64,000 nucleotides of DNA from Verrucomicrobiia bacterium (GCA_049692125.1 JBAVOO010000038.1:5588-69587), one strand, 5' to 3'; counted from the first letter of the stretch, positions 3,160-41,675 are shown. The notes: generated by a model from the sequence alone, not told the origin. Made by a program: numbers and translations.

Positions 3160-3303
3160 CCCCGTAGCGCAGGTTTCCAAACCTGCTGTATCGCCGATTT
3201 CCAAATCGGCAGCGCACCGAAACTCCTGCGCCCATTGAGCCTTTCCAAGTTCGCGGATTTGGAAATCCGCGACACAGCCGACTTGGAAGTCGGCGCTACG
3301 GGG
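3160..3303. repeat. Family A multi-hairpin palindromic repeat (type copy)
   Basis: Bounded by CCCCGTAGCGC ... GCGCTACGGGG. It contains four short stem-loops: gcaggtttccaaacctgc, gccgatttccaaatcggc, cgcggatttggaaatccgcg, gccgacttggaagtcggc. Related copies lie at 16086, 16708, 21494 and 36277. Confidence 0.8.
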
Positions 3304-3386
3304 GGCAAACTGGTACAGCGGGGCGGTCATATGAAATTTTCGCTATCACCGGGGGTGTTTTCGAGTATCATGCACTCAGTCGTTTT

Positions 3387-6300
3387 ATGGCCGTCGCTTT
3401 ACAATTCATCCTGAACGGCCGGATCGTCAGGGTTGAAAATTGTTCTCCGAACACGACGCTGCTTGAATTCCTGCGTCGCGCCGGCCTGACCGGCGCGAAG
3501 GAAGGTTGCGCCGAGGGCGACTGCGGCGCGTGCGCGGTCGTCATGGTTGACCGTGACGTGCAAGGGCGGCCTTGTTATCGCGCCATCAACAGTTGCCTCG
3601 TGCCGCTCTGCCTGATGGCGGGGCGTGAAATCGTCAGCGTCGAAGGCGTCGCGTCCGGTCAAGGCCTTCATCCCGTGCAGCGGAAAATGGTCGAGTGCCA
3701 CGGGTCCCAATGCGGCTACTGCACGCCGGGGTTCATCATGTCGCTCTTTGAGGGTTATTACCGCGACGACATCCATCAGCACGACGAACTGGACGATCAA
3801 CTCAGCGGCAATCTATGCCGCTGCACCGGCTACCGCCCGATTCGCGACGCAGCCATTGAAGCGTTTTCACTTCGTAGGAGTCGAGGTAACGAGACTCAAA
3901 CTAAAAGCAAAAATGAATTGGAGACTCCTTACGTCGTCTCCTACGGTCAGGATATTTTCGCCAAACGGCTGAAAAAGGCCGGCACCGGGCCGGACGGTGT
4001 CGAGTACGAATTCGGAAATGAGAAATTCTTCCGGCCAACCTCGCTGGTCCGGCTTCTGATGTTGCTTCAGCAGTTTCCCGACGGGCAACTCATCGCCGGG
4101 GCGACGGAACTGGGCCTCGACATCACCAAGCGTTACAAGAAATTCCGGACGCTGATTTCCGTCGAAGCCGTTTCCGAGCTGAATGGCATCCAATCCACTG
4201 AAACCGAATGGCAGATCGGTGCGGCGGCGACGCTGACGCAGATCGAGGAAAAAATGGCGGCAGAATTTCCCGCGCTCGGCGACATGTTGCGCGTGTTCGG
4301 TTCGCGGCTGATTCGCAATCGCGCCACGATGGGCGGCAACCTCGTCACCGCTTCGCCCATTGGCGACAGCGCGCCCGTGCTGCTGGCGTTGGACTCGAAA
4401 GTGGTGCTTGTAGGACAGGCTTCCAGCCTGTCTCCATCTAAAACGGAAAAGTTAGAGACAGGCGCGACGCCTGTCCTCCAGGAGCGCATTTTGCCGATTG
4501 AGCAATTCTTCGTCGCCTACCGCAAAACCGCGCTTCAGCCCGGCGAGATCCTGAAAACCATCATTGTGCCGCGCGGGGTGCCAAAACCGGGACTGGCGCG
4601 TAAATGTTCGTGGTTCAAAGCGTCCAAACGGCGCGAGATGGACATCAGCACGGTGGCCGCCTGCTTCACGGTGGATCTGGACGAACAGAACGTCGTGCGT
4701 TATGCGCGTCTGGCCTACGGGGGCGTGGCGGCGATGCCCGCCCGCGCGAAGAAAACCGAGTCGGCACTGTCCGGCAAAGTCTGGAGCAACGAAACCATTG
4801 CCGGCGTGCTGCCCATTTTGCGGACGGAGTTCAACCCCATCTCCGATGTTCGCGGCTCGGCGGAGTATCGCCGCGGATTGATCACCGGCTTGCTGGAAAA
4901 GTTTTTTCACGATTCGGAGGGGCGAGTTACACGAGTCCTTGACTCAAATGGAATTGATTTGGGGCTCGCAGAGTTCGCCCCTCCGAAACAGTCAAACCGC
5001 CCTCCGCCGCACGAAAGCGGCCACAAGCACGCCACCGGCGAGGCAATCTACACGGATGATTTCGGCGCCCGAAAACAAATGCTCGAAGTCTGGCCGGTGT
5101 GTGCGCCTCATGCTCGCGCGAAAATCTTGAAGCGCGACGCTTCGGCGGCAAAGCAGATGCCGGGAGTCGCCGCGGTTTTGCTGGCGGAAGATGTGCCGGG
5201 GTTGAACGATGTCGGCGCCGTGCGGCGGGACGAAATCCTGCTGGCGGACAAGGAGGTTTTTTATCACGGCCAGATCATTGCGCTGGTTGTCGGCGAAACT
5301 CAGGAAGCCTGCCGCTCCGCCGCGGATAAAATAATTGTCGAATACGAACCGCTGCCGCCCCTTCTGAAAATCGAGGAGGCCATCGCGCACAATAGCTTTC
5401 ACACCGAGCCGAATTTCATCCGGCGCGGCGACGTTCAGGGGGCGTTAAAAAAATCTCCGCAGGTTCTTGATGGGGAATTTTACATGGCCGGGCAGGAACA
5501 TTTTTATCTGGAAATGCAGGCGGCCTGCGCGGAGCCGGGCGAGGATGGCTCGATGTTCGTGATGTCCTCGACGCAGCATCCGTCCGAGGTGCAGCACATC
5601 GTCGCACACCTGTTGCACGTGCCGGTGAATCACGTCGTCGTGCAAAGCCCCCGCATGGGCGGCGGCTTTGGCGGCAAGGAAACGCAGGCTGCCACCTTTG
5701 CCGCGCTGGCGGCGCTGGCGGCGGCGAAAACCAAACACCCCGTGCGCGTGCGCGTGAACCGCGATCTCGACATGATGATTACCGGCAAGCGTCATCCGTT
5801 TCTGGCGAAGTTCAAAGTGGGCTACAATTCCGACGGCGATTTGCTCGCGGCAAAAATCGAATTGATCTCCAACGGCGGCTGGTCCCTCGATTTGTCCGTG
5901 CCGGTGACGGACCGCGCGGTGTTTCATCTGGACAATGCGTATTTTATCCCGGCGGTTGAATTTTCCGGGCAGGTCGCCAAAACCAATCTGGCGTCGAACA
6001 CGGCATTTCGCGGGTTCGGCGGACCGCAAGGCATGCTGGTCATCGAGGAAATTATTGACCGCATTGCGCGGCGGCTCGGCAAAGCGCCGGAGCAAATCCG
6101 CGAGCGGAATCTGTATCGCGGCAATGGCGAAACGAACACGACGCATTACGGACAGGAAATCGAGGACAACCGCATCCAGCGCGTCTGGCACGAATTGAAG
6201 GACAGCACCGGGTTTGAAAAACGTCGGGGGGAAATTGCGAAATGGAATGCGGACCATCCGCATCGCAAGCGCGGACTGGCCATGACGCCGGTGAAATTCG

Positions 6301-7313
6301 GGATTTCGTTTACGATGACGCATTTGAACCAGGCGGGCGCGCTGGTTTTGATTTATCAGGACGGCACGGTGCAGGTGAACCACGGCGCGACGGAAATGGG
6401 CCAGGGGGTTCACACGAACATTGCCATGATTGCGGCCCGGGAGCTTGGAATTTCGTTGGACAACGTTCGCGTCATGCCGACGAGCACGGACAAGGTGCCG
6501 AACACTTCGGCGACAGCCGCGTCGTGCGGCACGGACCTGAACGGGATGGCGGTGAAAAATGCGTGCGAAGTTTTGCGGGCCCGGCTGGCGCCGGTGGCGG
6601 CCAAACTGCTATCCAACGCCAGCGGACGTGAAGTCACGCCGGACAAGGTCGTGTTTGCGGACAATTTTGTTTCCGCCGCTGATGTTGTTTCCGGTGCCGG
6701 ATCGGGAGAGATAAAACTCGCGTTCAAGGAAGTTGTGGTCCCCGCACACATGCAGCGCATCAGCCTGTCTTCCACTGGGTTTTATCGCACGCCGGAAATC
6801 CATTACGACCGCGCAAAGGGCAAGGGCAGACCGTTCCATTATTTCGCGGTCGGCGCGGCAGTCACAGAAGTCGAGGTGGACGGGTTCACGGGCATGACCA
6901 AAATTTTGCGCACGGATATTTTGCACGACGCGGGCGACTCGATTAATCCGGGTATCAATCTTGGCCAGATTGAAGGCGGCTTCGTGCAGGGCGCGGGCTG
7001 GCTGACGTGCGAGGAGTTGGTTTGGAACGACCAGGGCGTTTTGCTGACACACTCGCCGGACACCTACAAAATTCCCGCCGTTGGCGACCGGCCGCTGGAG
7101 TTCAACGTGCAATTCCTCAAGAACGCGACCCAACCCAACACGATTCACGGCAGCAAAGCCGTCGGTGAGCCGCCGTTGATGCTGGCGATTTCCGTGCGCG
7201 AGGCGATCCGCGATGCAGTGGCAGCGTTTGGCTCCGGCCAAGGCGAAATTGCGCTCGCCGTGCCGGCCACCGGTGAGGCGATTTGGATGGCGATTCAGAA
7301 ACAACGAAAATGA
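3387..7313 (+). CDS. xdh: Xanthine dehydrogenase, single polypeptide (2Fe-2S + FAD + molybdopterin domains; XdhA-XdhB fusion)
   Basis: 1308 aa. N-terminal CAEGDCGACAV and CGYCTPGFIMS...CRCTGY FeS motifs; FAD domain (ATMGGNLVTASPIGD); Mo domain (QSPRMGGGFGGKET, GATEMGQG, KAVGEPP). The ORF is continuous. Confidence 0.92.
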   Translation: MAVALQFILNGRIVRVENCSPNTTLLEFLRRAGLTGAKEGCAEGDCGACAVVMVDRDVQGRPCYRAINSCLVPLCLMAGREIVSVEGVASGQGLHPVQRKMVECHGSQCGYCTPGFIMSLFEGYYRDDIHQHDELDDQLSGNLCRCTGYRPIRDAAIEAFSLRRSRGNETQTKSKNELETPYVVSYGQDIFAKRLKKAGTGPDGVEYEFGNEKFFRPTSLVRLLMLLQQFPDGQLIAGATELGLDITKRYKKFRTLISVEAVSELNGIQSTETEWQIGAAATLTQIEEKMAAEFPALGDMLRVFGSRLIRNRATMGGNLVTASPIGDSAPVLLALDSKVVLVGQASSLSPSKTEKLETGATPVLQERILPIEQFFVAYRKTALQPGEILKTIIVPRGVPKPGLARKCSWFKASKRREMDISTVAACFTVDLDEQNVVRYARLAYGGVAAMPARAKKTESALSGKVWSNETIAGVLPILRTEFNPISDVRGSAEYRRGLITGLLEKFFHDSEGRVTRVLDSNGIDLGLAEFAPPKQSNRPPPHESGHKHATGEAIYTDDFGARKQMLEVWPVCAPHARAKILKRDASAAKQMPGVAAVLLAEDVPGLNDVGAVRRDEILLADKEVFYHGQIIALVVGETQEACRSAADKIIVEYEPLPPLLKIEEAIAHNSFHTEPNFIRRGDVQGALKKSPQVLDGEFYMAGQEHFYLEMQAACAEPGEDGSMFVMSSTQHPSEVQHIVAHLLHVPVNHVVVQSPRMGGGFGGKETQAATFAALAALAAAKTKHPVRVRVNRDLDMMITGKRHPFLAKFKVGYNSDGDLLAAKIELISNGGWSLDLSVPVTDRAVFHLDNAYFIPAVEFSGQVAKTNLASNTAFRGFGGPQGMLVIEEIIDRIARRLGKAPEQIRERNLYRGNGETNTTHYGQEIEDNRIQRVWHELKDSTGFEKRRGEIAKWNADHPHRKRGLAMTPVKFGISFTMTHLNQAGALVLIYQDGTVQVNHGATEMGQGVHTNIAMIAARELGISLDNVRVMPTSTDKVPNTSATAASCGTDLNGMAVKNACEVLRARLAPVAAKLLSNASGREVTPDKVVFADNFVSAADVVSGAGSGEIKLAFKEVVVPAHMQRISLSSTGFYRTPEIHYDRAKGKGRPFHYFAVGAAVTEVEVDGFTGMTKILRTDILHDAGDSINPGINLGQIEGGFVQGAGWLTCEELVWNDQGVLLTHSPDTYKIPAVGDRPLEFNVQFLKNATQPNTIHGSKAVGEPPLMLAISVREAIRDAVAAFGSGQGEIALAVPATGEAIWMAIQKQRK
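3874..3944. repeat. Family C palindromic repeat inside xdh (FeS/FAD interdomain region)
   Basis: Termini gtaggagtcgaggtaacgagactc ... gagactccttacgtcgtctcctac. A related copy in opposite orientation lies at 36346-36417. Encodes ...RRSRGNETQTKSKNELETPYVVSY.... Confidence 0.7.
4410..4479. repeat. Family A-like two-hairpin repeat inside the xdh FAD domain
   Basis: Sequence gtaggacaggcttccagcctgtc ... gacaggcgcgacgcctgtcctcc. The caggctttccagcctg-type hairpin resembles the one at 16091. Encodes ...VGQASSLSPSKTEKLETGATPVLQ.... Confidence 0.6.
4916..4984. repeat. Family B repeat (GGAGGGGCGAG ... TTCGCCCCTCC) forming the XdhA/XdhB linker
   Basis: 69 bp. The inverted termini and the internal ggctcgc(a/g)(g/a)g box are shared with the copies at 32665-32770 and 34544-34621. 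Confidence 0.7.
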
Positions 7314-7355
7314 TTTTGTTTTCGCGGTGATCCGTTAGTAACGTGCCAGTCAATT

Positions 7356-8633
7356 ATGAATAAAAGCTTGGCGCACGAACTCGTTTCCAAATTTGTCCAA
7401 AGCTACGATTCGACGGCCAAAGATAAGATTTGGCAGAAGCAAAGTGCTGATTTCAGAGAGTTCTGGTCACAGCGGGTGCTTGCGCCGGGAAAGGAAACAA
7501 TTTCCGATGTCGACTGCGACGCAATCATTCGCATTCTCGACTTTAATGGAAAGGGCAAACCAAAGGGCAGTGAGGTTGTTGCCAAAGTGATGGTTTCCCA
7601 AAACGTCTGGCGGAAACTTTTTAACATTCTTCACTCCGATAAAAAGCTCGCAAGTTTGGTGGATTCGATTTTCAAGGAGGCCAACATTGACCGTAAGGCT
7701 CAATTAATTGATGAGCTTTATGCCGAAAACGCAACCGGGAAAAATTGGCTCACTGGTGAAAGTGGAAATGTACTGAACGCGCTGCTCGCAGCGTATGACC
7801 CAGTTAAGAATTTGTCGGCAGTATCAATCAAGCACCGAAAAGCTCTCGTGGACTTTCTGGAGATAAAGTCGCCTTTTGATTGGACTTCGGCTTCGATTGG
7901 AAAGCGGATTTCACATAGTAATGAATCCATTCAAGAGGCCACTCGTGCTCTTGGTCTGACCGGTTCTGCGCGGACACTATACCGGTTTTTGTATTCGGAA
8001 CCGGTCTCGAATCTCTGGCAAGACACCATCAAGCGAGGAGGCAAACAAGTGATTGTCACTGTTCCTCAAAAAACCGACGCCGAAGAAATGCAACCGGCGA
8101 ACAAAGGCGAGATACGGGAATCGCTGCAAATACAAGCCATCCTAGCAGACATTGGATCAAAAATGGGATTTCAAATCTGGCTGCCTCCTTCAGACCGTGG
8201 CAGAGTGCTGACAAAATGGACACCGAAGCCGGGTATGCTGCTTGAAGAACTTCCGGTCACATTCAATCCGACCACAATGAGAACCATCGAACAGATTGAC
8301 GTGCTTTGGCTCAAAAGAGCAGAAATTGTCAGAGCGTTTGAGGTCGAACACACAACATCAATTTATTCTGGGATTCTCCGCATGGCGGACTTGCTGGCGA
8401 TGCAGCCCAATATCACAATTAAGTTGCACATCGTTGCTCCGGCTTCAAGGCGGGACAAAGTTTTCCAGGAAATTGGCCGGCCTGTTTTCGCCGCGCTGGG
8501 AGGACGTGCGCTGCCGGAAATTTGCACTTTTCTTTCATACGAAAGCCTGACGGATTTACACGAACAAAAACATCTGGAGCGTTTGTCGGACAAGGTGCTT
8601 GAGGATTACGAAGACAAATCACAGGAAGCGTAA
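7356..8633 (+). CDS. Hypothetical protein with a C-terminal PD-(D/E)xK-like nuclease signature; low-GC orphan
   Basis: 425 aa clean ORF. The C-terminal block QIDVLWLKRAEIVRAFEVEHTTSIYSGILRMADL looks like a restriction-endonuclease-fold core (D ... ExE). A hand count of the first 100 nt gives about 42% GC, clearly below the neighbours. Confidence 0.6.
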   Translation: MNKSLAHELVSKFVQSYDSTAKDKIWQKQSADFREFWSQRVLAPGKETISDVDCDAIIRILDFNGKGKPKGSEVVAKVMVSQNVWRKLFNILHSDKKLASLVDSIFKEANIDRKAQLIDELYAENATGKNWLTGESGNVLNALLAAYDPVKNLSAVSIKHRKALVDFLEIKSPFDWTSASIGKRISHSNESIQEATRALGLTGSARTLYRFLYSEPVSNLWQDTIKRGGKQVIVTVPQKTDAEEMQPANKGEIRESLQIQAILADIGSKMGFQIWLPPSDRGRVLTKWTPKPGMLLEELPVTFNPTTMRTIEQIDVLWLKRAEIVRAFEVEHTTSIYSGILRMADLLAMQPNITIKLHIVAPASRRDKVFQEIGRPVFAALGGRALPEICTFLSYESLTDLHEQKHLERLSDKVLEDYEDKSQEA

Positions 8634-8657
8634 CGCATTACCTGTTTTGCCCTACCA

Positions 8658-10058
8658 ATGCTCGAAAGATTTTTCAAGCTTTCGCAAAACCAAACCACGG
8701 CGCGCACGGAAATCCTCGCGGGTGTCACGACGTTCCTGACGATGGCGTACATCATCGTCGTGCAACCGGCGGTGTTGTCGGGCGCCATGTTCGGGGCGCC
8801 GACGGGCATGGACTTTGGCGCGGTAACCACGGCCACGTGTCTTGCCGCCGCGCTGGCCACGGCGCTCATGGCGTTGCTGGCGCGTTATCCCATCGCGCAG
8901 GCGCCGGGCATGGGCGAAAATTTCTTCTTTGTGTTTTCGGCCATCCCCGCCGCCGCCGCCGCCGGTTTCACCAACAGCTGGCAGGTGGCGCTGGGAACAG
9001 TTTTTGTATCGGGGATTTTATTTTTGATTCTGTCGCTCGCCGGTCTGCGCGAAATGATTTTCAACGCCGTCAGCCCCAGCCTGAAATGCGCGATAGCGGC
9101 GGGGATCGGCCTGTTCATTGCGTTCATCGGGCTGCAAAACGCCGGCGTCATCATCAAAGACCCCGGCTCGGCGGTGAAGTTGAACACGCACTTCGCCTCG
9201 CCCGACCTGATTGTGTTTTTCGCCTGCCTGCTGACCACGGCAGTGCTACACGCCCGCAAGGTCCGCGGTTCGATCCTGTGGGGCATCGTCGCGGCCACAG
9301 TGCTGGCGGTCGCACTCAAACTGGCCCTGCCGCCGTCCGGCTCTCCGCTGGTCGCCAATTCGATGCTGGTGAAACAATTTGTTTTTGCGAGGGCCGTCGT
9401 CGCCGTGCCGCCGTCGCTCGCGCCGACATTTTTCCAGATGGACATCCTGCACGCGCTGTCGCCGAAAATGTTGCCGTTCGTTTTTGTGTTTCTGTTCATG
9501 CTCACCTTCGACGCCATCGGCACGCTGATTGGCGTTTGCGAACAGGCCGGCTTCATGCGCGACAACAAGCTGCCGCGCGCGAAGCAGGCGATGGTGTCCG
9601 ATGCCGTGGGCACGGTGGCGGGCGCGGCGCTGGGCACCAGCACGGTGACGAGTTTTGTCGAAAGCGCGGCGGGCGTGGAACAGGGCGGACGCACAGGGCT
9701 GACCGGTCTGATCGTGGCCGCGCTATTTTTGCTGGCGCTGTTTTTCAGTCCGCTGATTGCCATGATCGGCAGCTATCCGCCCATCACCGCGCCCGCGCTC
9801 GTCATCGTCGGCGCCATGATGGCGCAAAATGCCGCCCGGATTGACTGGAAAGATTACACGGAATCCGTGCCCGCGTTCCTGGTGATGATTGGCATTCCGC
9901 TGTCATATTCGATTGCCGACGGCCTCGCGCTGGGTTTCATCAGCTACCCGATCATCAAACTTTTCACCGGACGCGGGCGCGAAGCGGGCTGGCTGACTTA
10001 CCTTCTCGCCATCGTGCTCGTGTTGTATTTCATTTTTGTGCGGAGCCGGATGGGCTGA
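8658..10058 (+). CDS. NCS2/AzgA-family purine permease (adenine/guanine/hypoxanthine)
   Basis: 466 aa. MLERFFKL...TTARTEILAGVTTFLTMAYIIVVQP and ...GTSTVTSFVESAAGVEQGGRTGLT... align closely with my recollection of E. coli GhxP/AdeP-type permeases. Confidence 0.92.
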   Translation: MLERFFKLSQNQTTARTEILAGVTTFLTMAYIIVVQPAVLSGAMFGAPTGMDFGAVTTATCLAAALATALMALLARYPIAQAPGMGENFFFVFSAIPAAAAAGFTNSWQVALGTVFVSGILFLILSLAGLREMIFNAVSPSLKCAIAAGIGLFIAFIGLQNAGVIIKDPGSAVKLNTHFASPDLIVFFACLLTTAVLHARKVRGSILWGIVAATVLAVALKLALPPSGSPLVANSMLVKQFVFARAVVAVPPSLAPTFFQMDILHALSPKMLPFVFVFLFMLTFDAIGTLIGVCEQAGFMRDNKLPRAKQAMVSDAVGTVAGAALGTSTVTSFVESAAGVEQGGRTGLTGLIVAALFLLALFFSPLIAMIGSYPPITAPALVIVGAMMAQNAARIDWKDYTESVPAFLVMIGIPLSYSIADGLALGFISYPIIKLFTGRGREAGWLTYLLAIVLVLYFIFVRSRMG

Positions 10059-10128
10059 GATTCATTGCGTTCGGCTTGCAAATCTGAAACGCGGCGTTAC
10101 GCTGATGTATGGAAGTGTGTTATCGGCC

Positions 10129-10386
10129 ATGACCATTAACATTCCAGATGAGATCGCAAACGAATTGGGAACGGCTGCGCGTGACGTGGAGCGCCACGTG
10201 GTGGAAGCGGTCGCGATCGAAGGCTACCGAAGTGGACGGTTTTCCATCGGCTTCATCGGGAGGATACTGGGCTTGAGTTTATGGGACGTGGAAAAATTTC
10301 TTGATCGGCACGGCGCGCGGCATCCTTACACCGCAGACATGCTGCGGGAAGACCGCAATTCGCTGGGCCGGTCTTCCACTCCATGA
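10129..10386 (+). CDS. UPF0175-family antitoxin-like protein
   Basis: MTINIPDEIANELG...VVEAVAIEGYRSGRFSIGFIGRILGLSLWDVEKFLDRHG fits UPF0175. Alternative starts exist at 10105 and 10036. It overlaps the next gene by 4 nt. Confidence 0.7.
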   Translation: MTINIPDEIANELGTAARDVERHVVEAVAIEGYRSGRFSIGFIGRILGLSLWDVEKFLDRHGARHPYTADMLREDRNSLGRSSTP

Positions 10387-10859
10387 TGCTCGTCGTTGCC
10401 GACACGAGTCCGGTGCGCTACCTCGTTTTAGTCGGAGCGATGGATTGCCTGCCCAAACTTTACGATGCGGTTGTGATTCCACCGGCAGTACGGGCGGAGC
10501 TGGCGCATCCGGCTGCGCCGGAAAAGGTTCGCGCTTGGATTTCAACTCCGCCGGCGTGGCTTTCAATAAAAACTCCCGCGAAAATCCAAACCGATTTGAA
10601 CTTGGGCCTCGGTGAACTGGAAGCCATCGCACTGGCAGCCGAACTTCACGCGGCGGCCTTGCTTCTGGATGATCGTCACGCGAGAGAAGTTGCAATAGCA
10701 CAAGGGTTGTGCGTGGCCGGAACGGTGGGTGTTTTGGAAAAAATGGCCGCTGCCGGTCTGATGGACCTGCGAGTCATCCTGGAGCGATTGCGCCAAACCA
10801 ATTTTCGGGGTGACGAGCGGCTTTTTATTGACGCGCTTGCGCGTTTCGAGAACAAATAA
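10383..10859 (+). CDS. DUF3368 / PIN-like nuclease (toxin partner of UPF0175)
   Basis: 158 aa. N-terminus MMLVVADTSPVRYLVLVG...LPKLY..VVIPPAV..EL is typical of DUF3368 PIN-fold proteins, which are usually paired with UPF0175. Confidence 0.75.
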   Translation: MMLVVADTSPVRYLVLVGAMDCLPKLYDAVVIPPAVRAELAHPAAPEKVRAWISTPPAWLSIKTPAKIQTDLNLGLGELEAIALAAELHAAALLLDDRHAREVAIAQGLCVAGTVGVLEKMAAAGLMDLRVILERLRQTNFRGDERLFIDALARFENK

Positions 10860-12794: not shown

Positions 12795-14312
12795 TCAGTC
12801 ACGCGATTCGACCTGTTGGTTGAACTCTTCAATCAACTGGTCGAAATACGCGACTTCGTCCTCGAACAACGCCCGCCAGTATTCCGGATTCCATTGTTCC
12901 GTCAGCTCGGCTGAAGTTTTCCCCTGCTGCTCGACCCAGGTGTAATACTTGAGATTGTGAATCGCCTTGCGCTCCGGATAGGTCAGTTCCTTGAAGTAAT
13001 CCACACTCTGGTGCGCGAGCGGGCCGGCAAAGTCAGCGACCGCGTCCTGCGCGCGATATGCGCCGCGCTCGTGCTTCAATTCCTCGACGCGCGAGCCGTA
13101 AAGCTCGGTGGAGTCGGTGAACACGGTGAAAATCACATCCCGCTCGGTCAGTTCGAAATGTTTTGCGGTCTTGATGGCGGCGAGCAGGTTGCAGATGCTG
13201 GAAATGCCGAGCAGCGGCAACGATTCCAACTCTTTCGCCTTCACCCCGAGCGAGGCGAGATGTTTCTGGCCGGCGGCTTCGTTGAACACGCGGAGAATTC
13301 TCATGCAATCCTCGTCGTCAATTGCGGCGACCGCGTCAGTGTTGCGGACGTTGTGAACCCACGGGACATGTTTGTCGCCGATGCCTTCGATGCGGTGATC
13401 ACCAAAGCCGTTCATCAGCAGAGTGGGGCACTGCAATGCTTCGGTCGCGACGATCTTCAGGGCGGGATGCTGCTTCTTCAGGTAATCGCCTGCCGCGATG
13501 GTGCCGGCGGAACCGGTTGCGGAAATGTAAGCCGCTGCGCGCAACGGAGCGCGGCGTTCACGCCGCTTCACCGTCCTAGCCGAAGCGGCGTAAACGCCGC
13601 GCTCCGACGCATTAAGTTTTTGAAAAACCTCGTCAATGGCCGGGCCGGTCACGTTGTAGTGAAAGATCGGATTACCGAATTCATCGAACTGGTTGAAGAT
13701 GACGTTCAGTGGGTCCTTTTTCAGTTCCCAACATTTGTCGTAAATCTCCTTCACGTTCGATTCGCAGCCAGGCGTGGCGATGATTTCCGCGCCAATCTTC
13801 TTCAGCCACTCGAAGCGTTCACGCGACATGCCCTGCGGCAGAATCGCGATGGCCGTGCAGTCCAGCACGGCACAGTCAAACGCGCCCCCGCGGCAAAAAT
13901 TTCCCGTGGACGGCCATGCGGCCTTGTGCTTCTCGGGATCGAACTCGCCGCTCACCAATCGCGGCACGAGGCAGCCAAACGCCGCGCCGACCTTGTGCGC
14001 GCCGGTCGGGAAATATTTTCCAACCAGCCCGATGACGCGCGCCTTGACGCCGGTGATGGCCGGCGGAATTTCCAGATAATTCACGCCGCCGTAGAAACCT
14101 GTCTTCATGTCGTTCTTCCAGGTGATGCGAAAAAGATTCACTGGATTCACGTCCCACAGCCCGACGCCTTTGAGCTTTCGCTTGATGGCGGGCGGGATGA
14201 GTTCCGGATTCCGCAGTTGCTTGAACGTGGGCAACACGATGCCGCGTTTGCGGCAGCGCGCCGCGGTTTTCCTGATGACCTCCGGATGCAGACGTTTTAT
14301 GATTTTGGACAT
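12795..14312 (-). CDS. Fold-type-II PLP-dependent enzyme (cysteine synthase / Trp-synthase-beta superfamily), 505 aa, function unknown
   Basis: PLP-lysine context FPTGAHKVGAAFG and Gly-rich loop ISATGSAGTIAAG. It is longer than classical CysK/CBS cores. First gene of the yge-like cluster. Confidence 0.85.
   Translation of the reverse strand: MSKIIKRLHPEVIRKTAARCRKRGIVLPTFKQLRNPELIPPAIKRKLKGVGLWDVNPVNLFRITWKNDMKTGFYGGVNYLEIPPAITGVKARVIGLVGKYFPTGAHKVGAAFGCLVPRLVSGEFDPEKHKAAWPSTGNFCRGGAFDCAVLDCTAIAILPQGMSRERFEWLKKIGAEIIATPGCESNVKEIYDKCWELKKDPLNVIFNQFDEFGNPIFHYNVTGPAIDEVFQKLNASERGVYAASARTVKRRERRAPLRAAAYISATGSAGTIAAGDYLKKQHPALKIVATEALQCPTLLMNGFGDHRIEGIGDKHVPWVHNVRNTDAVAAIDDEDCMRILRVFNEAAGQKHLASLGVKAKELESLPLLGISSICNLLAAIKTAKHFELTERDVIFTVFTDSTELYGSRVEELKHERGAYRAQDAVADFAGPLAHQSVDYFKELTYPERKAIHNLKYYTWVEQQGKTSAELTEQWNPEYWRALFEDEVAYFDQLIEEFNQQVESRD
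13546..13605. repeat. 60-bp near-perfect hairpin inserted in frame in the PLP-enzyme gene
   Basis: Arms ggagcgcggcgttcacgccgcttc and gaagcggcgtaaacgccgcgctcc (23/24 complementary) around a 12-nt loop. Encodes roughly ERGVYAASARTVKRRERRAP on the minus strand. Confidence 0.8.
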
Positions 14313-16076: not shown

Positions 16077-16085
16077 GTATTTGAT

Positions 16086-16194
16086 GTGGCGCAGGCTTTC
16101 CAGCCTGCGGGTTCTGGGGACTTTCCAATCCCCAGTCTCTGGAACACGGGACAAGAATGTCCCGTGAACCCGCAGACAGGAATGTCTGCGCTAC
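16086..16194. repeat. Family A multi-hairpin repeat
   Basis: GTGGCGC ... GCGCTAC. Hairpins: gcaggctttccagcctgc, ggggactttccaatcccc, cgggacaagaatgtcccg, gcagacaggaatgtctgc. Confidence 0.8.
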
Positions 16195-16217: not shown

Positions 16218-17711
16218 TCATGGATTAGAGGACGCTTTTGCAGACACTTTGGTTCTTTCAGGTTTTGCCGCCGCGGCAATGGCATCAACGATCTGCTGGT
16301 AGCCAGTGCAGCGGCAGAGGTTTCCTGAGATTGCCGTTCGGATTTGTGTTTCGGTCGGATGTGGATTCAGATCCAGCAGTGCTTTTGCGCTCATCAGCAT
16401 TCCCGGGGTGCAGAATCCGCAGTGGACGGCATCGCAGTCCATGAAGGACTCCTGCAAAAGGTGGAGCTTGCCGCGCTGCATGAGTCCCTCCACGGTTAGA
16501 ACGTGTCGCCCGGCGATTTGTGGCGCGAGAACCAGACAGGAGTTCACCGGCTCGCCGTCGAGCAGCACCGTGCACGCCCCACACTCGCCAATCTCGCAAC
16601 CGCTTTTCGTGCCGGTAAAACCGAGCCGGTCACGCAGCAGATCGAGCAACGTCCAATGGGCGGGAATCGCAAGTGTATGGGAGCGCCCGTTGATGGTCGT
16701 GGTAATCGTAGCGCAGACTTCCAAGTCTGCCGTATTGCTGGTTTCTAAACCCGCGAGCCGTTCGACGTGCTCTGGCGTTGCCGATTTGGAAATCGGCGGT
16801 ACAGCAGACCTGGAAGTCTGCGGTACAGCAGGTTTGTCCCGCAAGGCGGGATGCGCTACTGCGGCTTGTTCCAACGCCCGGCGCACCAGCACGGCAATGA
16901 CGGGTTCCTTGTACTCCGACGACCAGCGCCTTCCGGCCTCTTTTATCATTTGCCCGGCAACTTTCTTTCCGGCGGCGGCGAACAGCTTCACCGCCGGCTT
17001 CTCGCCGACGAGCATCGCTTCGGCGTCCGTCACTCGCTTCCACACGGGGAAGACCGAGCCGGGAACGATGCGCGCATCACCGATTCTTCCATCGTCATTC
17101 ATTTGCAGAATGGCGGCAACACTCAGCCGGGAAGTCGAGAGTGCATTGCGGCGGCCGAGCTTGATGAATGCGCTTCGGGCGTTTGCCGGCAGCTTGGAGA
17201 AGCGGACAGCCGTCAGCAGTTCATCCGGTTTCGCCCTGGTTTGATAGGGTTTGAGGAACAGTTCCGCCAGATCCAGCTCGCGGCGCCCGGTCTTCGATTG
17301 CAGGGTCACGATTGCGCCCAGAGCGATCAGGGGCGGGACGGTGTCAGCGCACGTGGCGGCGTTCATGATGTTTCCGCCGATGGTTCCGCGATTTCTGATT
17401 TGCGGTGAACCGATGGTTGAAGCGGCTGAAACGAGGCACGGAGCAAACGTTCGCAATACGTTCGAACGCAGCAACTGGCTGTGCGTCGTAAGCGGCCGGA
17501 TGAGAATGCCGCCGTCGGATTCGATGATGCCGCCCAGTTCGTTCGCGCGGGAGGTGTCGAGAAGAACCTTGGGCGGCTTCGTTGATGGGTGCCGCAACTT
17601 GATCAATAAATCAGTTCCCCCGGCAAGGACAGAAGCATCGGGACCATGCTCGGAAAGGAGGCTGCACGCCTCAGCGATGGTCGCAACCGGGATGTAATCA
17701 AAAGGTTTCAA
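16218..17711 (-). CDS. Fused FAD-binding (CoxM/YgfM-like) and 2Fe-2S (CoxS-like) subunit of a molybdenum hydroxylase
   Basis: The N-terminal part (LKPFDYIPVATIAEA...LAGGTDLL...GTIGGNI) is a FAD subunit. The C-terminal part (INGRSHTL...GTKSGCEIGECGACTV...CGFCTPGM...CRCTGY) is a FeS subunit. The likely TTG start at 17711 overlaps the upstream TGA. The ORF-track start at 17837 lies inside the upstream gene. Confidence 0.85.
   Translation of the reverse strand: MKPFDYIPVATIAEACSLLSEHGPDASVLAGGTDLLIKLRHPSTKPPKVLLDTSRANELGGIIESDGGILIRPLTTHSQLLRSNVLRTFAPCLVSAASTIGSPQIRNRGTIGGNIMNAATCADTVPPLIALGAIVTLQSKTGRRELDLAELFLKPYQTRAKPDELLTAVRFSKLPANARSAFIKLGRRNALSTSRLSVAAILQMNDDGRIGDARIVPGSVFPVWKRVTDAEAMLVGEKPAVKLFAAAGKKVAGQMIKEAGRRWSSEYKEPVIAVLVRRALEQAAVAHPALRDKPAVPQTSRSAVPPISKSATPEHVERLAGLETSNTADLEVCATITTTINGRSHTLAIPAHWTLLDLLRDRLGFTGTKSGCEIGECGACTVLLDGEPVNSCLVLAPQIAGRHVLTVEGLMQRGKLHLLQESFMDCDAVHCGFCTPGMLMSAKALLDLNPHPTETQIRTAISGNLCRCTGYQQIVDAIAAAAKPERTKVSAKASSNP
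16708..16859. repeat. Family A multi-hairpin repeat forming the FAD/FeS linker
   Basis: GTAGCGC ... GCGCTAC. Hairpins: gcagacttccaagtctgc, gccgatttggaaatcggc, gcagacctggaagtctgc, cccgcaaggcggg. Encodes ...HPALRDKPAVPQTSRSAVPPISKSATPEHVERLAGLETSNTADLEVCAT.... Confidence 0.8.
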
Positions 17712-21466: not shown

Positions 21467-21493
21467 ATTCGCAGGACAAACGTCGCGCCTGTC

Positions 21494-21611
21494 GTAGCGC
21501 AGACTTCCAAGTCTGCTGTATCGCGGGTTTCCCAACCCGCAGCCCGCACAACATCGAACGCCCCGCCGATTTGGAAATCGGCGATACAGCAGGTTGGGAA
21601 ACCTGCGCTAC
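21494..21611. repeat. Family A multi-hairpin repeat
   Basis: GTAGCGC ... GCGCTAC. Hairpins: gcagacttccaagtctgc, cgggtttcccaacccg, gccgatttggaaatcggc, gcaggttgggaaacctgc. Confidence 0.8.
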
Positions 21612-21669
21612 GAGCGATTCTATCCGCCGCTCGGGTGTTGATGGACACGCTTTTCATTCTTCCAGTTCG

Positions 21670-26808: not shown

Positions 26809-27039
26809 AGCCCTGATGCTGATTAACCATTTTATCCTGACATCGCAAGAACATCCCACCCACACACTTATTGCCCTTTGCTTCACTTTTCTTGTCGGTG
26901 ATGGGCGGTTTGCCGTGCCTCAGCCCGATTCGCTCTTTCAACTGCCGTTTGGATGCGGCAAGAACGGTTCCGCTCTCCCGACCGGCAAATCGCCTGCTGC
27001 CGTTGCTCTGTGATTGACAGGACGCTTCCCGAATGATTA

Positions 27040-32288: not shown

Positions 32289-32900
32289 ATGTGCGCGCGT
32301 TACACCCTCACGCTCGAACAGGCCAGACTGGTCATCGCCGGACTGGTCCACATCTTCGCCTTTGCGCCGCGCTACAACATCGGTCCCGCCCAGCGCGTGC
32401 CGGTAATTTTGGACACCGCCGAGGGCGTCAAGGCCGTGGAAATGCGCTGGGGCATCCCGTCCGCGTGGTCAAAGACGCTCCACATCAACGCGCAGGCCGA
32501 GAACATCCACCAGACCACCACCTTCAAACCGCTGCCGGGCCAGCGCTGCCTGGCGCCGATGGACGGCTTTTACGAATGGAAACCGGACAAGTCGCCCGTC
32601 CGATTCGTCCGCCGCCGGCGGGAACTCTTTTGCGTGGCTGGCCTGTGGGCGGATGATCCGTACCGGTGGGGCGAGGCTCCTGACGAGCCGCCCAAGGATG
32701 GTGGCCGCAAAGAACGGCTCGCGGGGATCAGCCTTCGCCAGGCTGCGGCGCGACAGGCGCTCGCCCCACCGAAACGGATGGAACGGCACGTTCCTTTGTG
32801 CTGCTTACCACCGCCGCCAATCTCATCATTCGGCGGCAAACGCACTTGGAGAACATCTGATCACATTTTACTGGTGGAAACTTGTGCCATTAAGCGGTGA
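32289..32900 (+). pseudogene. SOS-response-associated peptidase (SRAP/YedK family), apparently disrupted by a repeat insertion
   Basis: N-terminus MCARYTL...PRYNIGP...MRWG...NAQAENI...DGFYEW...FCVAGLW is classical SRAP. After the repeat at 32665-32770, the conserved SFVLLTTAAN block is found only in a different frame and no clear HxRMP motif is found. Confidence 0.55.
32665..32770. repeat. Family B repeat (GGTGGGGCGAG ... CTCGCCCCACC) inside the SRAP gene
   Basis: 106 bp with perfect 11-bp inverted termini. Same family as 34544-34621 and 4916-4984. Confidence 0.75.
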
Positions 32901-35657: not shown

Positions 35658-36280
35658 TGCCACCGATTAAGGATCAAACGGTATTGGGCGTGGTCATCCT
35701 TGGCGCGGGCGCGTCGTCGCGGATGGGCCGGCCCAAGCTGCTGCTGCCCTGGCGCGACACCACCATCATCGGCCATTTGCTCAAACAATGGCGCGACCTC
35801 GGCGCGGCGCAAATTGGCATCGTCCTGCGTCCACCAGACGCGCCGCTGGCTGCCGAACTGGACCGGCTGGGTTTTCCGCACGCTGACCGCATTGAAAACC
35901 CGCAACCGGAGCGCGGCATGTTCAGCTCGATTCTCTGTGCAGCAAGCTGGCCCGGCTGGAAGGATGAAATCGCCACCTGGGCCATCGTACTGGGCGACCA
36001 GCCGCATTTGCGTATGGAAATGCTGCGCCAACTGCTGGAATTTCATGGCGCGAACGCCGACGCGGTCTGCCAGCTCGAATTTGACGGGCACGCGCGGCAT
36101 CCGGTTTTGCTGCCGCGCCGGGCATTCAAGGCGCTGAAAGTGTCCCAGGCCGAAACGTTGAAGGATTTTTTGAAACGAACTTCCGTCCGCTGCCTCCGCT
36201 GTTCCGTGGATGAACCCGGTCTGGCGCTGGATCTGGATACGCCGGAGGATTACCAACGGGCAAAGGGTGCCGGCTTGTAG
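35657..36280 (+). CDS. mocA: Molybdenum cofactor cytidylyltransferase (MobA-like NTP transferase, MocA family)
   Basis: VVILGAGASSRMGRPKLLLPW, VLGDQP, GHPVLL-like block and LDLDTPEDY fit MocA/YgfJ. The TAG stop lies inside repeat A5. Confidence 0.85.
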   Translation: MPPIKDQTVLGVVILGAGASSRMGRPKLLLPWRDTTIIGHLLKQWRDLGAAQIGIVLRPPDAPLAAELDRLGFPHADRIENPQPERGMFSSILCAASWPGWKDEIATWAIVLGDQPHLRMEMLRQLLEFHGANADAVCQLEFDGHARHPVLLPRRAFKALKVSQAETLKDFLKRTSVRCLRCSVDEPGLALDLDTPEDYQRAKGAGL

Positions 36281-36329
36281 CGCAGGTTTCCAAACCTGCT
36301 GTATTGCCGACTTACAAGTCGGCAAGGCG
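36277..36329. repeat. Family A repeat, half copy
   Basis: Sequence gtagcgcaggtttccaaacctgctgtattgccgacttacaagtcggc. No matching GCGCTAC end is seen. Confidence 0.75.
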
Positions 36330-36345
36330 TTAGGAGCCTGAGATT

Positions 36346-36417
36346 GTAGGAGCCGACGTGAGGAGGCTCTGACTGAAACCCCGAATTGGAAATGAGTCTC
36401 GTTACCTCGTCTCCTAC
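36346..36417. repeat. Family C palindromic repeat (intergenic copy)
   Basis: Termini gtaggagccgacgtgaggaggctc ... gagtctcgttacctcgtctcctac. The right arm's reverse complement differs by 1 nt from the left arm of the 3874 copy. Confidence 0.7.
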
Positions 36418-36432
36418 AAAAAATGACAACGG

Positions 36433-36558: not shown

Positions 36559-36567
36559 TATAAGGCC

Positions 36568-37572: not shown

Positions 37573-37757
37573 GACGCTGCCGTCCTTGTCCTCGTTTATT
37601 GAATAAGGAAACCAAGAACCCAAGAAGGCGGAAGCGAAGCCAGTTCATGGTTTCATGGATTCCTTATTGAATCCAAAGACGGCGCGCACGGAGTGACGCG
37701 CCCTACCTTCGTGTAGTTCGTGTGTTTCGTGGTTAATGAATTCCTTGTTCTGATCTT

Positions 37758-38732: not shown

Positions 38733-38770
38733 GCAAATTCATTTTAAACCACGAAACACACGAAAAAATT

Positions 38771-38836
38771 GGAACGCCGAGCACCGTCTCGGCTCGATTC
38801 CAATGATTTTCGTGCCGAGGCAGTGCTCGGCGCTCC
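38771..38836. repeat. Family D repeat (GGAACGCCGAGCACCG ... GTGCTCGGCGCTCC), intergenic copy
   Basis: Nearly identical core to 41225-41296. It is flanked by cacgaaacacacgaa / ttcgtgtttttcgtgg inverted motifs. Confidence 0.75.
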
Positions 38837-38871
38837 GTTCAGTTGCCTTCGTGTTTTTCGTGGTTTCCATT

Positions 38872-39360: not shown

Positions 39361-39385
39361 GATTGTTCTCGACGCGCGCGATAGC

Positions 39386-39469
39386 GTCTTGGACTGCGGC
39401 AGCCCTCTGCCGCTTTGGAATCACCAGTCCGCGCGCAAAAAGCGCCAGAGGGCTGGCGCACTCCAAGAC
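39386..39469. repeat. Family E repeat (intergenic copy)
   Basis: Sequence gtcttggactgcggcagccctctg ... cagagggctggcgcactccaagac. Confidence 0.65.
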
Positions 39470-39489
39470 CTGGCGGAAGCACGAGCGAT

Positions 39490-39948: not shown

Positions 39949-40016
39949 TCAATTTAGGCGGTTCAGCAGCACCGCCCTGCCAACAAGGGTAGGGCGGCGC
40001 TGCCGCGCGGCCTGAT

Positions 40017-41675
40017 TTATCCGCCGCCAAGCATAGCCGTCACTGGCAAAAAATCCACCCCGGCGAATTTTTCGATTACACCCTGGTTGGCCGGCACGCG
40101 GACCAGCGCATTCGCCGCCGCCAGGCAGGTGATGTCGCCGGAACTCGCCCAGGCCAGCGGGCGCAGGCGCGGCGCGGCATCATTCCATTCCCATCGGGCC
40201 GGCCAGAGCGTATCGCGCGGGCAGGGTTTGTCGTCGAGTTTTTCAGCAAGCTGCCCGCGCAGAAATTCCGGTGGTACACCGCCGGTCAGACCCGCCAGCG
40301 CCGTGGCGACGGCAAAATGGAAACAGACGAAATGCGAGAGCGGGTTGCCCGGCAGCCCGAAGGCCACGCGCGGGCCGTTCACGCCGAAGATCAGCGGCCG
40401 GCCGGGGCGCAGGTCAATCTGGCTGAATACGATTTCAAAGCCGAGCCGCTCAAATAACGCACGGGTAAAATCGGTTTCGCCCACGCTGGCGCCGCCGGAA
40501 ACCAGCAGCACGTCGGCGTTGCCGATAGCCGATAGCCGATAGCCGATAGCCGATTTTGCCCCCTCGAAATCCTCCGGCAAATGGGTTTGCTCCAGGTCGC
40601 ATGGAAAACTCTGGAGCAGGGCGCGGATGAGGATGGAATTGCTGTTGCGAATCTGGCCCGGTTTCGGCGTTCGGTCCGGCGGCACGATTTCATCACCGGT
40701 CGTAAAATGAACGACGCGCAATCGCGGGCTGACGGACGGATTGACATTTCCCGTCGTTGCCAGGATTGCCAGCGCACCGGCATTCAGTTTTGTTCCCGTG
40801 GACACAAGCGGCTGGCCTTGCCGCACCTCCTCGCCGCGCCGCCGGACGTTTGTCGAAATCTCCTGGCGCAAGAGACGGAGTTTGTCGCCGTCGCGTTCGA
40901 CGTATTCCTGCATCACCACGCGCAGGTTGTCGCACGGCAGCGCCGCGCCGGTCGCCACGCGCACGGCTTCGCCAGGTTTGAGCGGGCGCGGTTTCCAGTC
41001 GGCAGCATGAATCGTGTCCACGACGGAAAAAGTTTTCGACTCATCATCGGCGAGGATCGCATAACCGTCGCGCGTCGAGCGGTCCACCGGCGGCAAATCT
41101 TCCGGCGCGCAAACCGTTTCGCGCAGGACGCGCCCCAGCGCCTCGGCCAACGGCGTGCGTACGGCGGGCAACGGTTGGCAACGGGAGCGGATTTCTACAA
41201 TTGCTTCGTCCAGAGAGAGCGGTTGGAGCGCCGAGCACCGGCTCGGCGTGGTTCCAATGATATTTTGATTCGTGCCGAGGCGGTGCTCGGCGTTCCGGGC
41301 GCTTCGTTTCCAAATCGGCACGTCCTGCTTGAGGCGGTCCATGAATTCAGCCAGCAACGCAATGGCCTCGCCGCGATGCGGCGACGCCACGCCGACGTAA
41401 ATGGCCGTTTCGCCGGCGGGAATGACGCCGACGCGATGAATCACCCTGGCCGCCCGGCAGGGATGGCGCGCGGAAATGTCCTGCAGCAGCCGTCGGATTT
41501 CGCGCCCGGCCATTTCGGGATAGGCTTCGTATTCGAGGGCGCGGATGGCCTGGCCGTTTTCCTCACCACGAACCACCCCGCGAAATTCAAGCCACGCGCC
41601 GGCCGTGCCGGGTTGCCCTGGCGGTGAAATATTTTCCGCGATGGGCTGGTCGGTGAATTGGATTTCGATTTCCAT
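40017..41675 (-). CDS. MoaE-MoeA fusion (molybdopterin synthase catalytic subunit + molybdopterin molybdotransferase)
   Basis: Residues 1 to about 135 are MoaE (EYEAYPEMA...HRVGVIPAGE...SPHRGEAI...DVPIWK). From LSLDEAIV...AEALGRVLRE...STRDGYA onward it is MoeA. Single uninterrupted ORF of 552 aa. Confidence 0.9.
   Translation of the reverse strand: MEIEIQFTDQPIAENISPPGQPGTAGAWLEFRGVVRGEENGQAIRALEYEAYPEMAGREIRRLLQDISARHPCRAARVIHRVGVIPAGETAIYVGVASPHRGEAIALLAEFMDRLKQDVPIWKRSARNAEHRLGTNQNIIGTTPSRCSALQPLSLDEAIVEIRSRCQPLPAVRTPLAEALGRVLRETVCAPEDLPPVDRSTRDGYAILADDESKTFSVVDTIHAADWKPRPLKPGEAVRVATGAALPCDNLRVVMQEYVERDGDKLRLLRQEISTNVRRRGEEVRQGQPLVSTGTKLNAGALAILATTGNVNPSVSPRLRVVHFTTGDEIVPPDRTPKPGQIRNSNSILIRALLQSFPCDLEQTHLPEDFEGAKSAIGYRLSAIGNADVLLVSGGASVGETDFTRALFERLGFEIVFSQIDLRPGRPLIFGVNGPRVAFGLPGNPLSHFVCFHFAVATALAGLTGGVPPEFLRGQLAEKLDDKPCPRDTLWPARWEWNDAAPRLRPLAWASSGDITCLAAANALVRVPANQGVIEKFAGVDFLPVTAMLGGG
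40521..40554. repeat. Tandem heptanucleotide GCCGATA x4.8 inside the MoeA-coding part
   Basis: gccgata gccgata gccgata gccgata gccgat, read directly. Encodes ...SAIGYRLSAIG... on the minus strand. Confidence 0.85.
41225..41296. repeat. Family D repeat forming the MoaE/MoeA linker
   Basis: 72 bp, ggagcgccgagcaccggctcggc ... gccgaggcggtgctcggcgttcc. Encodes ...RNAEHRLGTNQNIIGTTPSRCSAL.... Confidence 0.75.

Follow-up and report, generated by a model that had tools for sequence, protein, structure and literature searches.

A 64,000-nt stretch of the genome of a Verrucomicrobiia bacterium (GCA_049692125.1, JBAVOO010000038.1:5588-69587; hereafter the window) contains about 15 palindromic elements resembling repetitive extragenic palindromes (REPs) and REP doublets forming hairpins (REPINs), and seven of these lie in frame within five genes. 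Self-comparison and inverted-repeat searches placed all of the elements within 3.1-41.3 kb; apart from the seven in-frame copies, one copy whose length is not a multiple of three (3n) sits in a SRAP pseudogene and the others are intergenic. We favour the reading that the in-frame copies are selfish REP/REPIN DNA, and assign it a probability of about 0.8. The core of the initial annotation, which had described palindromic repeats embedded in frame in real genes in the manner of the Rickettsia palindromic elements (RPEs), is supported. The elements are not members of that group; they are of the REP/REPIN type instead, several having GTAG or GTGG heads and one family flanking a gene resembling REP-associated tyrosine transposases (RAYTs). 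The in-frame copies, and the copy in the SRAP gene, are as follows.

3874-3942, plus strand: family B, GTAGGAG...CTCCTAC; xdh residues 163-185, 'RRSRGNETQTK..ETPYVVSY', in the 2Fe-2S-to-FAD linker (site 1)
4409-4480, plus strand: family X2 REPIN; xdh residues 341-365, 'VGQASSLSPSKTEKLETGATPVLQ', inside the FAD domain (site 2)
4913-4987, plus strand: family X3 palindrome; xdh residues 509-534, 'SEGRVTRV..GLAEFAPP' (site 3)
13545-13606, minus strand: family C palindrome with 25-nt arms that are 96% complementary; pyridoxal phosphate (PLP) enzyme residues 236-256, 'ERGVYAASARTVKRRERRA'
16706-16836, minus strand: family A REPIN; FAD/[2Fe-2S] fusion residues about 334-377, in the linker between the CO_deh_flav_C and Fer2 domains
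26163-26215, minus strand: family Y REPIN; ygfK-like gene, residues 224-241, 'GRADLPVGQAARPRGPA', inside the Pyr_redox_2 domain
41223-41297, minus strand: family D REPIN; MoaE-MoeA residues 127-151, 'ARNAEHRLGTNQNIIGTTPSRCSALQ', in the inter-domain linker
32664-32770, plus strand: family E palindrome (GTGGGGCGAG...CTCGCCCCAC), 107 nt, non-3n, in the SRAP gene

All five in-frame host open reading frames (ORFs) stay open, as had been claimed. The places previously given for intragenic copies were correct or nearly so, except that xdh carries three copies and only one had been listed. The lengths assigned to four of them (69, 60, 51 and 72 bp) were boundary calls; as delimited by the repeat finder, the palindromes span 69, 62, 53 and 75 nt. 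A proposed enrichment of intragenic copies for 3n lengths proved to be a survivorship tautology: the 3n length is the net difference from an empty allele, and it is uninformative because no ORF could stay open around an insert of any other length. In surviving ORFs the net insert came to 19-45 extra residues.

The fused xanthine dehydrogenase (XDH) was compared with 120 orthologues that are 70-92% identical, and DNA alleles were taken from loci L007, L008 and L009. The insert at site 1 was missing in orthologues P0001-P0005 and in all three loci, and that at site 2 was missing in L008, with L007 carrying another element there. The baseline without inserts reads 'IEAFAERHAKNGEDIFA' at site 1 and 'DAKVVLASESGERTLP' at site 2, to which the window protein and subsets of orthologues add 19-36 residues. 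Site 3 lies exactly where XdhA ends and XdhB starts in Rhodobacter capsulatus, and varied peptides were found there among the orthologues. In the PLP enzyme, the insert was missing in L009 and L045 (about 90% identical), and the site was empty in about 92 of 121 sequences (the window protein plus 120 orthologues). Empty alleles exist at 85–93% identity, with net changes of +57 nt at XDH site 1, +57 nt at XDH site 2 and +60 nt in the PLP gene; since close orthologues lack them, the inserts are not ordinary conserved protein sequence. The initial annotation had held that homologous residues at the same positions in repeat-free orthologues would speak for ordinary protein; no such residues were present at the insert positions.

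In the linker of the FAD/[2Fe-2S] fusion, L017 (86% identical) carries a different element, and L046 and L062 are repeat-free and 13 aa shorter; the FAD and Fer2 parts are two separate genes in L041, with a 226-nt spacer. The family Y insert of the ygfK-like gene occurs only in the window, L011, L025 and L045 (4 of 56), 47 of the 56 being empty, and L014, L015, L017 and L023 are occupied at this site by another family. The ends of this element read GTAG...CTAC in L011, L025 and L045; in the window GTAG has become GCAG and CTAC has become CTGC, a paired change of head and tail that preserves the complementarity of the outer stem. YgfK proteins of five loci from Acidobacteriota and Thermoanaerobaculales (L055, L057, L059, L065 and L067) have in-frame repeat-like peptides at a different site, near query position 457, for example 'VVADHGPRTTDH', so the phenomenon appears to reach beyond Verrucomicrobiota. 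No window-specific inserts were found in sixteen other window genes, nine of which have no orthologue in the loci compared.

The SRAP sequence 3' of the family E element resumes in another frame, and when the element was spliced out the Pfam SRAP match grew from 136 to 158 of 214 profile positions and from 93 to 103 bits. Because it is frameshifted and lacks the rest of its C-terminus, this gene is a pseudogene; the coincidence of this copy with gene decay had been correctly recognized.

The remaining copies in the window lie between genes.

3156-3307: family A REPIN, between the 724-aa Mo-subunit gene and xdh
16086-16194: family-A-like REPIN (GTGG.../...CTAC), immediately upstream of where the OTCase-like gene really starts
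21488-21617: family A REPIN, upstream of the 431-aa PALP gene
36273-36331, then 36347-36420: half a family A element followed by family B, downstream of mobA
37598-37672: family G palindrome, AT-richer, with one extra copy in a metagenome contig
38769-38837: family D REPIN, between moaB and moaA
39386-39469: family F palindrome, between moaC and moaB, with copies in L021, L030, L036 and L085

Three of these (16086-16194, 21488-21617 and 36273-36420) appear intragenic and are actually intergenic. Homology to L009 stops at 16084, and the N-terminal ORF extension covering the 16086-16194 element was present in none of 39 orthologues; similarly, the extension 'LGNPRYSRLGSLRY..' over 21488-21617 is unique to the window's ORF (0 of 50 orthologues). 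The composite at 36273-36420 overlaps a spurious antisense ORF, for which the gene calls in L001 were consulted. Repeat density is very uneven, with the elements clustered at purine-catabolism and molybdenum cofactor (Moco) genes; no REPIN-like palindromes were found in the last 22 kb (42000-64000), against about 15 in the first 42 kb.

Family A is represented by four window copies (3156-3307, 16706-16836, 21488-21617 and 36273-36331), which match one another in self-BLAST with E values of 1e-8 to 2e-17. The two family D copies (38769-38837 and 41223-41297) are 81% identical over 75 nt (E = 1e-8), and the two of family B (3874-3942 and 36347-36420) have a 25-nt match (E = 4.7e-4) and a common architecture. 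X2, X3, C, Y, E, the A-like element at 16086-16194, G and F have one window copy each. At least five families had been credited with both intergenic and intragenic copies in the window, and only A, B and D have them; the repeat status of the PLP, ygfK, SRAP and two xdh elements comes from copies in other genomes. The similarity of intragenic to other copies, on which the initial annotation had made its proposal depend, is significant both in the window and in other genomes.

A family A arm (GTAGCGCAGGTTTCCAAACCTGCT GTATCGCCGATTTCCAAATCGGC) consists of two hairpin units of about 24 nt; an element has a pair of these arms in opposite orientation, separated by a spacer of 24-42 nt. In the copy at 3156-3307, two inverted 55-nt arms each hold two GTAG/GTAT-headed units of about 24 nt, and the whole is predicted to fold with a free energy of -85.9 kcal/mol (z -9.3). 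The hairpin units of families A, A2, X2 and Y have perfect stems of 6-9 bp and loops of 3-8 nt. Several families open with GTAG or GTGG and close with CTAC or CCAC; a GT[AG]G head was found in A, A2, B, X2, E (GTGG) and in the Y copies of L011, L025 and L045, and hairpins with such tags total 40 in the window, compared with 11 ± 3 after shuffling. Predicted folds range from -22 to -86 kcal/mol (the family C element at 13545-13606, -57.6 kcal/mol), with z scores of -3.9 to -9.9 for the in-frame and intergenic copies and -2.6 for the SRAP copy. The in-frame hairpins match the intergenic ones in predicted stability, and stems reach 25-26 bp. We judge it probable that these are non-autonomous palindromic elements of the REP/REPIN type; their short, G+C-rich hairpin units mostly form inverted dimers of 50-150 nt.

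Every family has additional copies elsewhere. Exact-pattern matches to the X2 unit (GTAGGACAGGC-N5-GCCTGTCTC) occur in at least 120 metagenome stretches, often as plus/minus pairs 40-110 nt apart (31 of 133 elements were paired), and although the contigs were collected for X2 alone, A2, B, X3, C, Y, E, D, F and G are represented in them too. Nine extra copies of X3 lie in unrelated metagenome contigs, and copies of C, D, B and F occupy non-orthologous places in related genomes. A scan of viral contigs with family A returned two loci only and was uninformative. Inside long ORFs, X2 is read in five phases, as VGQASxLSP (19 units), RTGFQPVS (5), DRQDACPT (10), ETGATPVL (10) and RQAGSLSY (5); none of the units inside long ORFs is in the phase that reads the head as TAG. 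Family B likewise gives 'RRSRGNETQ..ETPYVVSY', 'VGDEVTSL..ETPHVVSY' and 'VGDEVTSL..RLLTSSPT'. DNA rather than peptide is thus the unit of homology, a pattern that fits selfish DNA filtered only for an open frame. Since one DNA family can yield up to five peptides by phase, clusters of insert peptides over-count families, and a family count obtained by such clustering was rejected.

When an element was counted as intragenic, by proxy, if the ORF continued for 100 codons or more in both directions, 32 of 106 evaluable X2 elements (about 30%) qualified, against 45% of random positions in the same contigs. X2 dimers inside ORFs measured 68, 70, 70, 74 and 84 nt end to end. The hosts apparently include LeuRS, ThiC, a GlnRS-like enzyme, PheS, aminotransferases, an M20 peptidase, XseA and a Ser/Thr kinase; these names were assigned from conserved motifs by eye, only a DinG-like ORF having been run against Pfam.

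The same codon positions are occupied repeatedly among orthologues. When a site was scored as filled if the protein was at least 8 aa longer there than the shortest orthologue, XDH site 1 was filled in 54 of 121 sequences, site 2 in 49 of 121 and the PLP site in 24 of 121 (about 29 by eye); the MoaE–MoeA linker was filled in 119 of 120, relative to its shortest orthologue, P0164 (525 aa). The XdhA|XdhB junction is filled in most orthologues. Several to many peptide types were found at each of these hot spots, and in the PLP enzyme one site alone varies along 485 aa. Some inserts are composite: that of P0245 comprises the left arm of family C followed by an X2-type element, and half elements followed by another family occur in P0039, P0050 and P0059. 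Short footprint-like remnants were also seen at hot spots, for example 'CADERGSAAAFIS'. On neighbour-joining trees built without the insert columns, each site required at least 15-18 changes between filled and empty, compared with 22-40 for shuffled states.

Filled alleles of different families have common flanks that are unlike those of empty alleles ('VFQEL..' versus 'VFASLGK'; 'GV(I/V)V' versus 'GKAAAS'), which hints that elements replace one another where a site is already filled, instead of striking an empty site time after time. L007 belongs to a metagenome-assembled genome (MAG), GCA_052143795.1, that agrees with the window at 99.98% identity over the moa region. The 5' third of its xdh (3303 to about 4650) shows only about 85-90% identity, and identity is 100% from there to 9022; this xdh has no insert at site 1 and a different element at site 2. 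By such mosaics, allelic recombination moves insert states between strains. As a pattern, the occupied sites turn over.

The inserts map to domain borders or loops, where they would form surface loops or linkers. XDH sites 1 and 3 are the two inter-domain linkers, which are likewise unaligned in mammalian XDH, and site 2 adds 18 aa compared with rat XDH. Of the seven in-frame copies, three lie exactly at fusion junctions. AlphaFold models offer weak support for this placement: residues 120-148 of MoaE–MoeA are modelled as coil with a predicted local distance difference test score (pLDDT) of about 30, and residues 240-252 of the PLP enzyme as coil with pLDDT below 50.

A link to a transposase was found in two diverged metagenome contigs, L131 and L160, in which two X2 units flank a RAYT-like segment of approximately 750 nt (a REPtron arrangement). 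The RAYT-like gene and its two X2 units (L131:11186-11984 and L160:10355-11171) are embedded in frame in an ORF for a DinG-like helicase, which has 980 aa in L131, and the frame is open throughout in both. A PDB sequence search with the RAYT-like segment gave no match, and no insertion sequence (IS) with ends matching the elements was seen in the window. By analogy with other bacteria, RAYT-type HUH tyrosine transposases probably mobilize the elements in trans.

Several observations weigh against reading the in-frame copies as selfish REP/REPIN DNA. A GTAG head is missing from five families: in C, D and X3 its place is taken by GGAG, and F and G are untagged. Alignments of filled with empty DNA alleles revealed no clean insertion junction or target duplication, and the 10-35 nt beside an element also differ, so that simple insertion is not demonstrated. 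The RAYT-like segment scored 65 bits against NCBIfam NF047646 (E = 5.6e-18), compared with a curated cut-off of 80 bits, and 22.3 bits against Pfam Y1_Tnp, under the cut-off of 23; it sits, moreover, in contigs without taxon assignment. A six-frame motif scan of the window and 1.4 Mb of related loci, which did not extend to the whole source genome, found no RAYT except in L069 (Opitutales), where the gene has no link to a REP. Neither the window nor any locus of a close relative yielded one, and mobilization by a RAYT is therefore something that we infer. Both AlphaFold models are poor (mean pLDDT 60 for MoaE–MoeA and 59 for the PLP enzyme, from shallow alignments) and lend correspondingly weak support to the inserts being unstructured. 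Translation of the inserts, finally, is presumed from open frames only.

Of the alternatives, we regard it as extremely improbable that the inserts are ordinary fast-evolving, low-complexity loops with chance palindromy, or assembly artefacts. Linkers are indeed poorly conserved even in eukaryotic XDH, but chance palindromy was rejected in view of E values down to 1e-17 between intragenic and intergenic copies, fold z scores down to -9.9, stems of 25-26 bp and the at least 120 exact-pattern metagenome matches. As to assembly, window positions 29490-49948 are 100% identical over 20.5 kb to JBKQVF010000095.1 of MAG GCA_052140025.1, and at least five further assemblies match the same stretch at 99.2-99.98% identity. 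This stretch is the 3' third of the region concerned and spans the SRAP and MoaE-MoeA copies and several intergenic ones, the agreement leaving out the xdh, PLP, FAD–Fer2 and ygfK copies; across it, an artefact was rejected on the evidence of at least six independent assemblies that are 99.2-100% identical.

A functional role for the peptides, selected as flexible linkers of fused enzymes or, through their RNA hairpins, as pauses in translation between domains, seems to us unlikely. Such a role would accord with a MoaE-MoeA linker filled in 119 of 120 sequences and an XdhA|XdhB junction filled in most, with three of seven in-frame copies standing exactly at fusion junctions, and with intragenic hairpins that are still very stable. 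Yet family, phase and peptide vary freely among close orthologues, sites outside linkers are often empty, P0164 lacks an insert in its linker and the linkers of L046 and L062 are repeat-free; nor would the need for a spacer demand this specific DNA. We consider it possible, on the other hand, though we lean away from it, that the hot spots reflect purifying selection alone, with elements inserting independently anywhere and surviving in tolerant loops, and with neither targeting nor replacement in situ. The single variable site in 485 aa of the PLP enzyme and the mapping of sites to loops and linkers are consistent with this, as is the finding that random positions are only 1.5 times likelier than X2 to fall in long ORFs, which suggests weak avoidance and strong filtering. 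The composite and nested inserts of P0245, P0039, P0050 and P0059 argue against it, as do the common flanks of filled alleles, unlike those of empty ones, which suggest replacement at a resident element.

If the in-frame copies are selfish REP/REPIN DNA, as we favour, their occurrence could be accounted for as follows. The elements are short, G+C-rich and free of stops in five of six phases, so that an insertion changing the length by 3n in a tolerant loop or linker would leave the protein working. Most copies lie between genes, and out-of-frame copies would kill the gene, as at SRAP. Occupied sites change hands, one codon position having different families, nested copies and footprint-like remnants in different orthologues, and homologous recombination carries filled and empty alleles between strains. 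The insert peptides themselves are most likely neutral passengers, that is, disordered spacers. More speculatively, and with some doubt on our part, resident REPINs might serve as landing pads or recombination partners, such that one repeat family after another keeps rewriting a handful of codon positions in essential enzymes of Limisphaerales; REPINs in the short gaps between operon genes, acting as stop-free read-through DNA, might create and renew the linkers of fusions (XdhA–XdhB, FAD–[2Fe-2S] and MoaE–MoeA), and a whole RAYT-plus-REP unit might live in frame in a helicase gene.

Together these data suggest that a free-living bacterium carries selfish hairpin DNA inside housekeeping enzymes far more often than the word 'extragenic' implies; about half of the window elements and roughly 30% of X2 copies in metagenomes lie within ORFs. 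The recurrent sites provide a natural map of the loops and linkers at which XDH, YgfK, the PLP enzyme and MoaE–MoeA tolerate insertions. The repeats are also a hazard for annotation, through lengthened proteins, false N-terminal extensions and spurious 'hypothetical proteins', and they can mislead homology-based clustering of metagenomic proteins. Were the landing-pad and fusion idea true, REPINs would be a steady source of linker sequence and gene fusions.

The source is a soil verrucomicrobium, and relatives that are named at NCBI belong to Limisphaerales, Verrucomicrobiota. Gene identities were taken from Pfam scans of the window ORFs, which revealed a cluster for purine and uric-acid catabolism; two ORFs without Pfam matches, of 665 and 302 aa, overlap other genes or repeats and were rejected as spurious. 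The principal genes are as follows.

3387-7313, plus strand: fused xanthine dehydrogenase (xdh), 1308 aa
Purine cluster: permease and adenine deaminase
12795-14312, minus strand: 505-aa PALP (PLP) enzyme
Purine cluster: OTCase-like gene
16218-17837, minus strand: fusion of FAD-binding and [2Fe-2S] domains, 539 aa, adjoining its own Mo subunit
Purine cluster: YgeX-like PALP enzyme, M20 peptidase and amidohydrolase
24247-26886, minus strand: YgfK-like protein
Purine cluster: PALP+ACT enzyme and carbamate kinase
Downstream of the purine cluster: truncated SRAP gene, xdhC, mobA, moaA, moaB and moaC
40017-41675, minus strand: MoaE–MoeA fusion

Between xdh and the permease gene lies a variable slot (7356-8633) with a 425-aa ORF; L008 has no such ORF and L009 has a 164-aa ORF instead. 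The counterpart of the 425-aa ORF in L007 carries a precomputed Pfam match to NmeDI_C, a match that our own scans did not return. A UPF0175 and DUF3368 (PIN-like) pair at 10036-10859, likely a toxin-antitoxin module, separates the permease from adenine deaminase, a gap that measures 15 nt in L009 and about 190 nt in L008. At 16218-20068, true orthologues of the 786-aa Mo subunit and of the 539-aa FAD–Fer2 fusion are confined to L017, L046, L062 and L041; in most close relatives this position holds a different Mo enzyme (about 46% identical) and a 185-aa Fer2 subunit, with no FAD domain, which looks like replacement of a cassette within a conserved cluster. Farther along the window, a gene of the phage integrase family and, after it, one with a NERD domain (59759-62312) may mark the edge of an integrated element, and tandem coding repeats of 123 nt (41 aa) with an 'S..SGATW' motif, resembling BNR/Asp-box repeats, run off the window end (63215-64000).

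GTAG-tagged REPs and REPINs are said to be accompanied by RAYT transposases, as Nunvar in 2010 and Bertels & Rainey in 2011 reportedly described. The present elements resemble them in having hairpin units with stems of 6-9 bp and, in several families, a GTAG or GTGG head, in forming inverted dimers with spacers of 1-100 nt, in the many families per genome, and in a RAYT-like gene with cognate units on either side (X2, in metagenome contigs). They resemble the RPEs in their in-frame insertion into ORFs that stay open (seven copies in five genes, with empty orthologous alleles). Unlike the present elements, RPE-1 is longer (about 105-146 nt), and the heads here are GTAG, GTGG or GGAG, not CGTC, a distinction made by tag and without comparison to an RPE consensus. 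The hosts differ as well, Rickettsia being reduced intracellular alphaproteobacteria and the present host being free-living with a large genome. We know of no dedicated transposase for RPEs.

RPEs have been described as palindromic selfish DNA lying in frame in many unrelated genes whose ORFs remain open (Ogata 2000, as cited in PMC3184786 and PMC3733652), and two of them, RPE-4 and RPE-6, are REPs that carry the CGTC tag (PMC3733652). Other small, non-autonomous repeats that lie within coding sequences or are fused to them include BRE in Bordetella, RUP, BOX and SPRITE in pneumococcus, and RU and YPAL in enterobacteria (PMC3184786). In contrast to the elements described here, the BRE, RUP, BOX, SPRITE, RU and YPAL repeats, which resemble transposable elements of the miniature inverted-repeat type (MITEs), have terminal inverted repeats matching those of an IS, together with target duplications; identity as MITEs was rejected, no target duplication appearing in filled-versus-empty alignments, in which the flanks are replaced or diverged.

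REPs fall into two super-families, GTAG-tagged and CGTC-tagged (Di Nocera et al. 2013, PMC3733652). That study reported intragenic REPs in several species, with intragenic GTAG REPs most numerous in Opitutus terrae, a verrucomicrobium; more than half of intragenic REPs were dimers encoding 20-30 residues, some ORFs were hit twice, and placement in linkers or loops was proposed. Its REP-tagged proteins include the xanthine dehydrogenase of P. syringae and XdhC of Thauera, and different REPs were noted at about the same site in Xanthomonas recB. The initial annotation had known of no case in the PVC group or Verrucomicrobia and none in Mo-enzyme genes; the O. terrae REPs supply the one precedent, and the listed xanthine dehydrogenase and XdhC the other (PMC3733652). 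As in O. terrae, the in-frame copies of the window encode about 20-30 residues, sometimes two per ORF, in a verrucomicrobium; unlike that case, they occur in Limisphaerales, in genes of purine catabolism and Moco biosynthesis, and some families are without the GTAG tag. Turnover at the same site over some 120 orthologues, fusion junctions that are nearly always filled and an in-frame RAYT-plus-REP unit were not found in that paper (PMC3733652). No paper on repeats of Limisphaerales was found, and the literature searchable yielded no account of several families turning over at fixed codon positions in large sets of orthologues, of near-universally filled fusion junctions or of a REPtron lying in frame. 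Both the type of phenomenon and its presence in Verrucomicrobia are thus already known, and the window is an unusually rich example of it; what looks new is the scale, with the same codon positions held by many families over some 120 orthologues.

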